Source: Eledone cirrhosa (Eukaryota). From it: 64,000 bases of DNA. The translations under genes were made by a program, and so were the position numbers. Where the stretch lies: contig OZ024757.1 in assembly GCA_964016885.1 (NCBI GenBank), forward strand, positions 23,560,001 to 23,624,000, written 5' to 3'. Each line of letters opens with the position of its first letter. Position 1 is the first letter of the stretch. The notes under the pieces were generated by a model, which made no database searches, was not told the DNA's origin, and saw nothing but the letters and a program-made list of their open reading frames with translations. Below, in pieces: positions 38,622 to 54,651 of the stretch.

Positions 38622-39683
38622 TTTCTATTTATTGCCACGAGGGCGCAAAAGAAGGAGACAAATACAGGGGGGGGGGGGGGGGGTTACACAAAAAGGCGAG
38701 TAAAGAAAACAAATAAATATAAAACAAATAACAAATATAAAATTAACAAAGTCCTCAATAGGGAGGAGGCGTTTTTGGAGGTCGCACACACCCCCGAAAA
38801 AGTGTGCAACCCTTCTCCTCAGGAGCACAGAGAGAGGGTGCTCCCTTGTTCCTTCATCTTTTCCACCTACAGGCTGATGTAGAGAGAAGGCCCATTTCAC
38901 ACGGGCCATTCTCACCACTTTCACCCATCTTTCATAAAAGCGGCTGGGGTGCAGCACCTCTCTCTCCATCCTGATCCTTCTTCCGAAATGATATCGGAAG
39001 AAATGGACCAGTTGTTGGCCAGAGAGGAAGGTGTCTGACCTCAGTCCTTTCAGACGCATCCACCATACAACTTCTTTCACCATGGCCATTACACACAGAA
39101 ACACCGCCTCTCCTTCATTTTTGAAAGGGGGAGGCGGCTTAATCGTTACAATAGATTCGGTGGTCAACAGGATCGGTCCCACCCATGACAGCAGTCGTTC
39201 GACATAGCCCCACAGATCGGCTACACCCGAGCAGTGTACCAATGCGTGTGCAACGGTTTCCTCGTCGCACACGCATCTGGGACAGATCTTTTTGGCAGGG
39301 TCCCTACCCAGGCGCCCGTGTCTGTAGAGCTTTTCTCGAACGGGTAGAGCCCCTCGGTAGCACTGCCAGGCCAGGGACTTCTGGAAGTTGTCCATAGGTC
39401 CCAGGATGAATGTCCTACCGAACAGGCTGGCCAGTTCGTCTTCCTCCATGTCTAGGGCTTCTCCGAGGGCGTCATCGCACCTGCTGCGTACCAGCCCTCT
39501 ATAGAATCTCGAGGTGGAGTCTCGACTGATAACCGGGTCCGCCTGCCAGAGGGCCGTGAGTGCCTGGGCACATTCAGTGTGCCAGGTGCCCAGTTTTCTC
39601 AGTCTTTGCTTGACCCAGGATTGCAGCTCAGTGAGTGAGACGAGTCTGGGAAAGGGTCGTCTCACAAACAGGGCCCACACCCC
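38622..39683 (-). mobile_element. 5'-truncated Tx1/L1-like LINE, ORF2 C-terminus with zf-RVT-like domain
   Basis: Open frame containing [15 protein letters not shown]...[25 protein letters not shown]-rich relative to the flanks, ends near AATAAA, and is embedded in (TA)n/(TAGA)n. Confidence 0.85.
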
Positions 39684-41275
<1,592 letters not shown>

Positions 41276-51659: not shown

Positions 51660-52805
51660 TTGGATTGGCAGTATCGGTAGAGTGTCGGATGTCATGCTTT
51701 GGCGCATAGAGTTACGGCCCTTGCCATTCTGAGTTCAAATCCCGCCGAGGTTAACTTTGCCTTTCATCCTTACGGGGTCGATAAAATAAAGTACCAGTAA
51801 TACACTGGGTAATTGCTGGCCTTGTGCCTAAAGTAGAAACAATTATTGTGGTTTGGAAGTATCGGTAGAGCGTCAGACACCATGCTTTGCATTTTACATT
51901 CTGAGTTCAAATCCCTCCGAGGTTAACTTTGCCTTTCATACTTACGAGGTCGATAAAATAAAGTACCAGTAATGCACTGGGGTTATTGTTGGCCTTGTGC
52001 CAAAAGTAGAAACAATTATTATTATTATTGTTCAAATCCCACCAGGTTAACTTTGCCTTTCATCCTTACGGGGTCGATAAAATAAAGTACCAGTAATGCA
52101 CTGGGGTTATTGTTGGCCTTGTGCCAAAAGTAGAAACATTATTATTATTATTATTGAAGTAGAAATAGAAGCTTCGCTGTAATATTTTGATTATATAATA
52201 TAGTCTAATAATTGTTTCTACATTTGGCACAAGGCCAGCAATTACCCAGTGCATTACTGGTACTTTATTTTATCGACCTGGTAAGGATGAAAGGCAAAGT
52301 TAACCTCAGCGGGATTTGAACTCAGAATGGCAAGGGCCGCAACTCTATGCGTCAAAGCATGGCATCCGACCCTCTACCGATACTGCCAATCCACCGCCCT
52401 TATAATATAGTCTAATAATTGTTTCTACTTTTGGCACAAGGCCAGCAATTACCCAGTACATTACTGGTACTTTATTTTATCGACCCAGTAAGGATGAAAG
52501 GCAAAGTTAACCTCGGCGGGATTTGAACTCAGAATGGCAAGGGCCACAACTCTATGCGTCAAAGCATGGCATCCGACCCTCTACCGATACTGCCAATCCA
52601 CCGCCCTTATAATATAGTCTAATAATTGTTTCTACTTTTGGCACAAGGCCAGCAATTACCCAGTACATTACTGGTACTTTATTTTATCGACCCAGTAAGG
52701 ATGAAAGTCACAGTTAACCGCGGCGGGATTTGAACTCAGATCGTAAAGGGACGTAACTACGCTGGAAAGCATGTCTGACCCTCTACCGATACTGCCAATT
52801 CACCA
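51660..52805. mobile_element. cluster of six Meta-domain-like SINEs: three plus-strand then three minus-strand
   Basis: Plus copies at 51660-52140 and minus copies at 52207-52805. The minus copies are separated by a repeated TATAATATAGTCTAATAAT. Confidence 0.85.
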
Positions 52806-53912
52806 ATGGGTGTAAAAACGCACTGAACAGAAAAAGATGGGTATCAGCAGACCTGGAGGGTCGAACCAACACCTCCCGATATCATCATCATCATCATCAT
52901 CATCACATTAAAGCATCAAATTCCAAAGCACTGGTTGAAAGATATACTTCCACAAATCCTTTGATGGTTGCAGTAAAATATTTTATACTATTTTGTTGTC
53001 CAATAAAATCAAGATAAAATAACTCCAGCAGCACTGAAATCACTGAAGTCACTGATACCACTTTTCAAATGTGTGATTGATTGATTCCTTGTTGAATTTT
53101 ATTGATTTTTTTCGTTGTTTGCTTTTGTCTTTATTTAGAAGTCATTTTGAAATCTGAATAAAATAAATTGTCTCCCTTTATTGTACCCAGTGACCTAACC
53201 ACCCCACCCTCCACCACCATTGCTGTTTGTTGAAGGTCAATCGGTTCATTTATTTAAAAACACATTTCAAGCCTTCCCCCTTTTCTTTTATATATTAAAT
53301 AAGTGAGACTGCTGTCAATAATAAAAACTGGTATTTGTTGAATTTATTTCACTTTTTCAGTACTGCATGTATATGTAAATATAATAGCAGTGTGTGTGGG
53401 TGTGTGTATATATATATATATATATATGGAGGCACATGGCTTAGTGGTTAGAGCATTGGCCTTGCAATCGAAAGGTTGTGAGTTCAATTCTCAGACCGGG
53501 TGATGTGTTGTTTCCTTGAGCAAGACACTTTATTTCACATTGCTCCAGTTTACTCAGCTGTAGAAATGAGATGATAGGGACCTCAGTCCCTATCATCCCA
53601 CTGCAAAGTGGTCGTGGAGGTGCCACAGCAAAAAAAAGCACCCAGCCCACACTGTAAATGAGGTTGGTGTTAGGAAGGGCATCCAGCTGTAGAAATCAAG
53701 CCAGAATCAGTTCCCGTCCCACCCTTGCAAGCAGGGAAAAGCGGACGTAAAATGAAATGAAATGAAAATGATATATATATATTGTTATACTTGGGGAGAG
53801 TCATATTTGTGTAATATTGCCAGAATTAATAACAGAACACACTCACTGTTTGGTTGGTTTTCGCTTCTCGCTGTCTTTTATATCGGTAATCTAACTTACT
53901 CGGTCCTCAATG

Positions 53913-53991
<79 letters not shown>

Positions 53992-54113
53992 AGGAGGTGA
54001 GTTTTATTGTAGCACAATAAAGCAATGCAAATATCGGATAAGTAGCACTCCACAGTTTATAGGACTGGAGTATAAATAATATAAGATCAAAAGATGGTTA
54101 AAAGCGTTCCATG

Positions 54114-54184
54114 TATTTTATTATGCGCATTTCAAAAACAAATATCATCATGGGATGATATTTGCGTTCTCATCAGATAAAATA
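54114..54184 (-). ncRNA. type-I hammerhead ribozyme motif (HHR1)
   Basis: Reverse complement: UAUUUUAU CUGAUGA GAACGCAAAUAUCAUC-CCAU-GAUGAUAUUUGUUUUU GAAA UGCGCA UA AUAAAAUA. Complete core, 8-bp stem I, 16-position stem II, palindromic stem III. Confidence 0.85.
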
Positions 54185-54255
54185 GGGAGACATGATATGA
54201 AGCTTAAAAAACACTTGCATGTTGATTTAACACTGCACTGCTTCATATGTCTCCC

Positions 54256-54326
54256 TATTTTATCTGATGAAAACGCAAATATCATCCCATGATGATATTT
54301 GTTTTTGAAATGCGCATAATAAAATA
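54256..54326 (+). ncRNA. type-I hammerhead ribozyme motif (HHR2)
   Basis: Stem I 54256-54263 / 54319-54326; CUGAUGA 54264-54270; stem II 54271-54306; GAAA 54307-54310; UGCGCA 54311-54316; predicted cleavage after A54318 (AUA triplet). Confidence 0.85.
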
Positions 54327-54356
54327 CATGGAACTCTTTTAACCATCTTTTGATCT

Positions 54357-54377
<21 letters not shown>

Positions 54378-54387
<10 letters not shown>

Positions 54388-54450
54388 TAGTTGTTTTGGA
54401 AGCCTCAAACAATACATTGTTGAGGCTTCCAAAATGACTATTTTTAATAT
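54378..54450 (+). other. 73-nt near-perfect hairpin
   Basis: ATATTAAAAATAGTTGTTTTGGAAGCCTCAA...TTGAGGCTTCCAAAATGACTATTTTTAATAT; the two arm mismatches are G-U compatible on the plus strand. Confidence 0.85.
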
Positions 54451-54651
54451 TCCACAATGTTTCAAGCAAACTTTAGCATTCTCTAATATATATATATATA
54501 TATATATAACCAAAGATTAATATGGTTTGTTGATTATTCAATGAATAGAATTTTACAATAGATTAGAAGCACTCAACAAGAGATTTTCCTGGAGTATTTA
54601 ATATTATTCAAAATATTAATAAATGAAAAATATTCTCATAATCAAAATATA

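Follow-up and report, generated by a model that had tools for sequence, protein, structure and literature searches.

Penelope-like elements (PLEs) are described as leaving composite insertions, with an inverted 5'-truncated partner copy, a tail on one side and a bias to (TA)n (PMC8557442), and in the supplement of that paper Penelope-13_HM is listed as having hammerheads on the two strands as well as a 5'-truncated copy in inverted orientation. The origin of the inverted repeats and tails is posed as a question both there and in PMC3846280. Within the PLEs, the Hydra clade is defined in section 11 of PMC8557442 by DKT, CxCx5C, CxxC and CxH and by the lack of CCHH, and its elements are described as 'generally short', which is a trait and not a criterion. 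In Schistosoma, PLE hammerheads are found in pairs on opposite strands, 100-700 bp apart (PMC4209133). For PAc, the Poseidon element of Anolis carolinensis, two internal reverse-transcription start sites bounding the tail have been located in vitro, where insertion proceeds without need of hammerhead cleavage (PMC11167929).

Here we analyse one locus of this kind in Eledone cirrhosa, whose genome has a size of 3.0 Gb; the window means the whole stretch of 64 kb in which it lies. As regards its architecture alone, the locus is almost certainly a truncated head-to-head insertion of a Hydra-clade PLE in (TA)n, with both arms consisting of pseudo-LTR. Judged by its sequence, the element is a Hydra-clade PLE of a new family, and the locus itself is ordinary, a standard PLE insertion scar. 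In common with the Hydra clade, including Hydra-1_Obim of Octopus bimaculoides and Penelope-13_HM, it has a single frame for reverse transcriptase (RT) and GIY-YIG nuclease, a hammerhead in the pseudo-LTR and the (TA)n target (PMC8557442), the last two being traits of that clade. The family's frame contains DKT, the CxCx5C linker, CxxC and CxH, and CCHH is absent as judged from the cysteine positions. Hydra-1_Obim has a different hammerhead sequence, and we therefore regard the present family as separate; the two proteins are alike by motifs only, as compared by eye (supplement of PMC8557442). Unlike the clade as described in PMC8557442, this family has RWI at the matching place of the N-terminal RWK, which its homologues do have, a length of about 3.9 kb (at the full element L064) instead of less than about 3 kb, a tail of 82-90 nt instead of 30-40, and a longer stem II (15 bp).

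Structure of the locus and its hammerheads

The features of the locus are as follows, with coordinates of the window.

53911-53988, no strand: (TA)n/(TG)n microsatellite on the left, target of the insertion, read directly; (TA)n is listed as a Hydra-clade PLE target (PMC8557442 supplement)
53989-54218, minus: long arm, a pseudo-LTR copy whose 5' end lies 41 nt upstream of the ribozyme core and whose 3' end is the 'long' one, by alignment to L064
53989-54072, minus: one-sided 'tail' of about 82-90 nt between the short and long 3' ends, on one arm only
54114-54184, minus: type-I hammerhead motif with C3 at 54176 and a predicted cut 3' of 54122, by descriptor scan and fold
54219-54361, plus: short arm, starting 2 nt inside the preferred 5' start, with two deletions and the 'short' 3' end, by alignment to L064
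54256-54326, plus: type-I hammerhead motif with C3 at 54264, a self-complementary helix III and a predicted cut after A54318, by descriptor scan and fold
54358-54381, no strand: right (TA)n microsatellite, read directly

The first-pass annotation described a protein-free inverted repeat with two hammerheads pointing outward, and both the alignment and the descriptor scan bear this out. Without gaps, the arms are 54079-54193 and 54247-54361 (115 nt, 98% complementary), and over a 3-nt indel the alignment extends to the limits given before, 54079-54203 and 54240-54361. The unit is larger than first drawn: (TA)n runs lie on both sides, the minus arm continues for about 85 nt past the former left boundary, and the whole insertion occupies 53989-54361. 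From 54217 to 53989 on the minus strand, 98.3% identity over 229 nt is found to the 3' pseudo-LTR of L064. What had been taken for a 36-nt spacer is element sequence, belonging to the minus arm up to about 54218 and to the plus arm from 54219; by the same alignment, the plus arm carries a 19-nt and a 3-nt deletion. Searching the whole 64-kb window by tblastn with the family ORF gives no match and no ORF remnant, in agreement with the description of the locus as protein-free. In contigs of four sequencing runs of unrecorded kind, the depth is very high as summed on the arms and low at the locus-specific centre, and no listed piece spans the palindrome, so that these runs speak neither for nor against the assembly at this place.

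Scanned on both strands with a hammerhead descriptor, the 64-kb window gives three matches, all near the palindrome. Two are the pair already annotated, and the third, 54706 to 54660 on the minus strand, is a degenerate motif of another family. The plus-strand motif consists of stem I (54256-63), CUGAUGA (54264-70), stem II (54271-306), GAAA (54307-10), UGCGCA, U54317, A54318 and stem I' (54319-26); on the minus strand the mirror motif has C3 at 54176 and its predicted cleavage base at 54122. Stem I has 8 bp in each motif, and the 36-nt stem II region folds into 15 pairs with one C-U mismatch and a CCAU loop. Both arms have CUGANGA, GAAA, UH and three helices with helix I open, so that the type-I assignment with a palindromic helix III holds for both by scan and fold. 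The hammerhead search proposed in the first-pass annotation succeeds with the descriptor and fails with the Rfam models, for which no ribozyme is among the 25 matches up to E=5, these being only microRNA-like or other hairpins under the gathering score; PLE hammerhead variants have been found using custom descriptors (PMC4209133). An AAUAAA is present as well. We assign it no role as a poly(A) signal, because it belongs to stem I' and because (TA)n, not poly(A), terminates the copies seen.

Compared with the PLE hammerheads of PMC4209133, the present motifs share type I, the palindromic helix III, a predicted dimer and a long helix II, and they differ in having a helix III of 8 nt (non-minimal), a stem I of 8 bp, A-U or G-U and not G-C at 10.1-11.1, and a pyrimidine mismatch that is conserved at position 4 of stem II. 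Helix III yields -10.5 kcal/mol as a self-duplex between two molecules, and its closure inside one molecule costs about 3 kcal/mol, which fits the dimer ribozyme described for metazoan PLEs in PMC4209133. In the parent element the motif is likely to be a slow cutter, predicted to act as a dimer or with assistance of protein, and the two hammerheads at this locus are best read as passengers of a duplicated end. The computed folding energy is -192 kcal/mol for the whole palindrome and about -15 kcal/mol for a single arm, which makes it plausible that self-cleavage would compete with a dsRNA hairpin. Nothing points to the hairpin as a selected function. If the palindromes were read through, they would form hairpins of more than 100 bp, possible substrates of RNA editing or small-RNA silencing.

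The parent element and its copies

The first-pass annotation named a Penelope pseudo-LTR remnant as one of two possible origins and suggested looking for an attached RT/GIY-YIG ORF, and at other copies such a frame is present. Walking upstream from other copies leads to a nuclease reading frame. A search with this nuclease protein yields 30 loci, 28 of which carry the pseudo-LTR at most 1.5 kb away. L064 is a whole element spanning about 3.9 kb, in which direct pseudo-LTRs (2622-2845 and 6290-6518) surround a 715-aa frame, with a 1-kb 3' region; L063 has a 760-aa frame. DKT, YRDD, CxCx5C, CNLC and CLH occur in both frames. The family is thereby shown to encode, at L063 and L064 and so outside the window locus, a TERT-like RT and a GIY-YIG-type nuclease in a single frame. 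For the RT, a fold model with a pLDDT of 77.5, made from an alignment of 37 sequences (34 homologues and three genomic copies), has TERT as its top structural match (E 2.6e-8). The GIY-YIG-type nuclease is assigned by its motifs: Pfam gives no match on the L063/L064-type frame itself, and on the aligned relatives 1 of 37 matches GIY-YIG, weakly. Sequence searches of solved structures (PDB) with the ORF or its alignment are blank or weak. In all, 39 homologues of the frame are found, with 28-40% identity. An asparagine-rich insert of low confidence lies between RT and nuclease at about residues 540-615 of the L063 ORF, like the N-rich inserts of rotifer PLEs (PMC3846280). Frames of remoter Hydra-like families are seen at L031 (2-2169), which is 33% identical to L063, and at L068 (1437-1913).

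The copies are very numerous. With the core plus stem I' as the exact pattern and the reversed pattern as control, the genome has 18,809 matches against 0, from which it follows that the motif is not due to chance, and the count of copies proposed in the first-pass annotation thus runs to thousands. This shows a large and apparently unlisted expansion of Hydra-clade families, the intact motifs numbering 18,809 or more. If the stem I motifs of a divergent pair are required to lie 105-135 nt apart, 4,421 pairs are counted in the genome and 0 in the control, the window's own pair being shorter than this range; among the first 50 listed, 28 belong to the window's family group and 22 to sister families, as sorted by eye. 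For a closer view we use 101 copies that follow one another in the first 27 Mb of a single contig and were chosen because their core is intact. Among them, 34 sit in 17 short pairs and 67 outside short pairs.

For comparison of the motifs, 123 distinct ones were taken from all fetched loci, chosen for a paired stem I and with the core as part of the search pattern. Their stem II sequences fall into 19 clusters, in which pairing is kept through A-U/G-C and U-A/C-G swaps: 149 of 190 cells are paired against 117 +/- 6 after shuffling, and 0 of 2,000 shuffles reach 149, the shuffle being one that ignores relatedness. CUGAUGA occurs in 119/123 and H17 is A in 123/123, a constancy to which the search pattern, including the core, contributes. 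On these terms, the conservation and covariation expected of a ribozyme in the first-pass annotation are both found among the copies. Three main self-complementary variants of helix III cover 106 of the 123 motifs. In place of G10.1-C11.1, A-U or G-U is found for 18 of 19 clusters, and published Hydra-clade hammerheads are frequently without that pair too (PMC8557442 supplement). Position 4 of stem II is a pyrimidine-pyrimidine mismatch, paired in 0 of 19 clusters, and is a candidate for a tertiary contact. The sister families at L148-L167 have stem I and the core in common and differ in stem II; all of them keep the position-4 mismatch.

Ends of the copies and routes of insertion

Two 3' ends recur among the 101 copies: 45-46 stop at a short site and 44 at a long one, which lies another 82-90 nt downstream. 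Where two copies stand head to head, a long one generally has a short partner. This holds for 23 of 26 loci once double counts are struck out manually (P 4e-5), for 15 of 15 loci of a second set, chosen on the centre alone (class 'short/other'), and, as judged by eye, for 14 of 15 sister-family pairs. The window palindrome obeys the same rule, three of the 26 loci break it, and 15 of 58 short copies are without an inverted partner at the junction. By analogy with the start sites of PAc, which are known in vitro, the two 3' ends would be sites where reverse transcription starts. PAc resembles the present family in having two 3' ends downstream of the hammerhead, an AT-rich target and an uncleaved RNA template. 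The start sites of PAc lie inside the ORF, while both 3' ends here precede the ATG (long 3' end at 2845 and ATG at 2924 in L064), and neither the use of one site per arm nor a cap G is reported in the part of PMC11167929 used here. Just past the short 3' end, a short motif is conserved across families (L148-L167; 54040-54075 on the minus strand in the window), which makes a candidate signal for the start of RT.

The 5' ends also pile up. Starts at 67-70 nt upstream of C3 are found in 33 of the 101 copies; 58 copies in all, these 33 included, end within 120 nt. Extents of more than about 150 nt on the 5' side are bounded by the reference copies and were left out. The preferred start, about 69 nt upstream of C3, is an A in what we take to be an initiator-like context, and the short arm of the window begins 2 nt inside it. 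A splice acceptor at this place is ruled out, there being no AG before it. In 80 of 81 copies that run through, the templated base before the start is C. One-base centres of palindromes are C/G in 48 of the 50 listed of 277 and were set aside as evidence for a cap, for an added G and the templated C look alike there. The two-base centres are more telling. A hand count of the 50 listed of 73 gives GG/CC 15, TG/CA 20, CG 2, AG/CT 2, AT 8, AA/TT 1, TC/GA 1, AC/GT 1 and GC 0; among these 50, a G precedes the start on at least one arm at 39, and G-only centres are 24 against 2 C-only (P 5e-6). In L1, an untemplated 5' G is taken as the copied cap (PMC9341517), and by analogy the start base may be a Pol II transcription start and the extra G its copied cap. 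The RT may also add a C without a cap, and the 20 TG/CA centres may be decayed CG.

Starts at the predicted cleavage site are rare. By hand counts, which detect only junctions with a non-templated neighbouring base, about 80 copies start there (32 of the 100 listed, of 247 matches), about 45 start at a control position 4 nt upstream (7 of the 100 listed, of 662), and more than 3,000 start at the preferred 5' start (3,876 matches). With so few starts at the cleavage site, the template appears to be almost always uncut; the twofold excess there may reflect real cutting in the cell or AT microhomology.

We consider it somewhat probable that the palindromes consist of two cDNAs, which were primed from both cut sides at the long and the short site of a sense RNA, itself capped and uncleaved, and which were joined close to the 5' end of this RNA. 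The enzyme would cut both strands of (TA)n, each DNA end would prime a cDNA at one of these sites, one dimeric enzyme would copy one RNA twice, and the cDNAs would join at or before the start of the RNA, their 3' ends annealing through ATAT or other microhomology. Since the RT of PLEs is not known to have RNase H, one RNA could be read twice. L1 twin priming is comparable, both cut sides there priming cDNA on one RNA to give an inversion; its two pieces do not overlap, whereas here both often reach the same 5' end and so form a palindrome. We give about even chances to the fuller statement that the palindromes record a reaction of a dimeric enzyme on a capped, uncleaved sense RNA, in which the two cut ends use one start site each and the transcription start is where the cDNAs come together. 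If it is true, one rule would cover inverted pseudo-LTRs, one-sided tails, tail-only inversions and solo pseudo-LTRs, and it would argue against an antisense self-priming model. A bolder form, with the palindromic helix III as a signal for RNA pairing and not a cutter, is distinctly doubtful. Two further points weigh against the two-cDNA reading: central deletions after insertion, such as those at the window locus, could mimic truncated arms, and copying one RNA twice leaves arms of mixed subfamilies unexplained unless conversion came later. The two arms are of the same subfamily at 268 loci and mixed at 3, with 10 mixed loci for another pair of subfamilies.

Fold-back is an unlikely alternative, in which one cDNA or antisense RNA snaps back at its palindromic start and serves as its own template as far as a TA microhomology. 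It has been proposed, on an antisense template, for rotifer PLEs (PMC3846280), and it would suit the perfect spacerless centres, which are common (22 of 76 rows with ends), as well as the arms being nearly always of one subfamily with private variants in common. The tail cannot be templated by a cDNA that starts at the short site, but loci with a complete short arm and a truncated long arm do occur, even if later deletions could blur this. The short arm is the complete one at L077, L107, L134 and L141, and the long arm at L129 and L144; that either arm can be complete is not given by fold-back of one cDNA. The extra G at the sense 5' end also suits a capped sense template better than an antisense one.

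Quite improbable is a reaction with two RNAs, held together by helix III of the hammerhead dimer and each copied from one cut side. Helix III is indeed self-complementary across families, as its three main variants in 106/123 motifs show, the PAc protein is a predicted dimer (PMC11167929), and mixed palindromes exist, with arms differing at 12-13 positions at L168 and L170. Such pairs make up only about 1% (3 vs 268), and, apart from the tract that differs, their private variants are common to both arms, in keeping with gene conversion; two free RNAs alone would, moreover, not force a long end to pair with a short one. The distances between each arm and its nearest copy do not discriminate, the copies being too alike.

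Less credible still is that the palindrome is a non-autonomous ribozyme element, similar to retrozymes or MITEs, which spreads as a unit, a reading towards which the first-pass annotation inclined. Animal non-LTR retrozymes share the type-I hammerhead, the non-coding nature and the origin from PLE pseudo-LTRs (PMC7229834; bioRxiv 10.64898/2026.07.22.740005), thousands of palindromes here are similar in size and some have an identical centre, and a copy in which the start site is retained could undergo another round of transcription. According to the same two sources, retrozymes are head-to-tail tandem arrays making circular RNA, the array being their defining trait in animals (PMC7229834), while the window locus is head-to-head and without an array. 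In addition, 67 of the 101 copies lie outside short pairs, and the ends are those of the PLE and not inverted repeats of transposase type. The centres vary, at least 12 of 17 being different, and spread as a unit is unlikely because they differ among loci; together with the lack of a tandem array and the arms being of one subfamily (268 vs 3), this indicates that the palindromes form anew at insertion. A MITE of a DNA transposon is ruled out, the arms being PLE ends.

Our preferred reading, two cDNAs on one capped RNA, concerns a genome offering thousands of young scars with three countable rules, namely long and short pairing, a fixed 5' start and an extra G, which are usable as evidence on the mechanism of PLE insertion. 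In the literature searched, older Penelope papers being covered in part, we found no PLE twin priming, no rule of long and short ends and no cap G in PLE copies.

Other features in the window

Immediately to the right of the locus, 54378-54484 is a tiny head-to-head palindrome between two (TA)n runs, 81% like pieces at L013 and L104; its right arm is about 35 nt longer, and it looks like a long and short scar of a third family. Next to it, 54486-54763 on the minus strand is a long-form pseudo-LTR of a sister family, 78-80% like L119, L159 and L166, which carries the degenerate hammerhead (54706 to 54660) and represents an insertion of its own, with the next (TA)n run as target. Three tandem SINE-like units of 207 bp face an inverted copy (52044-52814 and 55289-55495). 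Further to the left, a frame fragment at 38625-39700 on the minus strand contains a cysteine-rich motif similar to the C-terminal zinc-binding part of a LINE RT.
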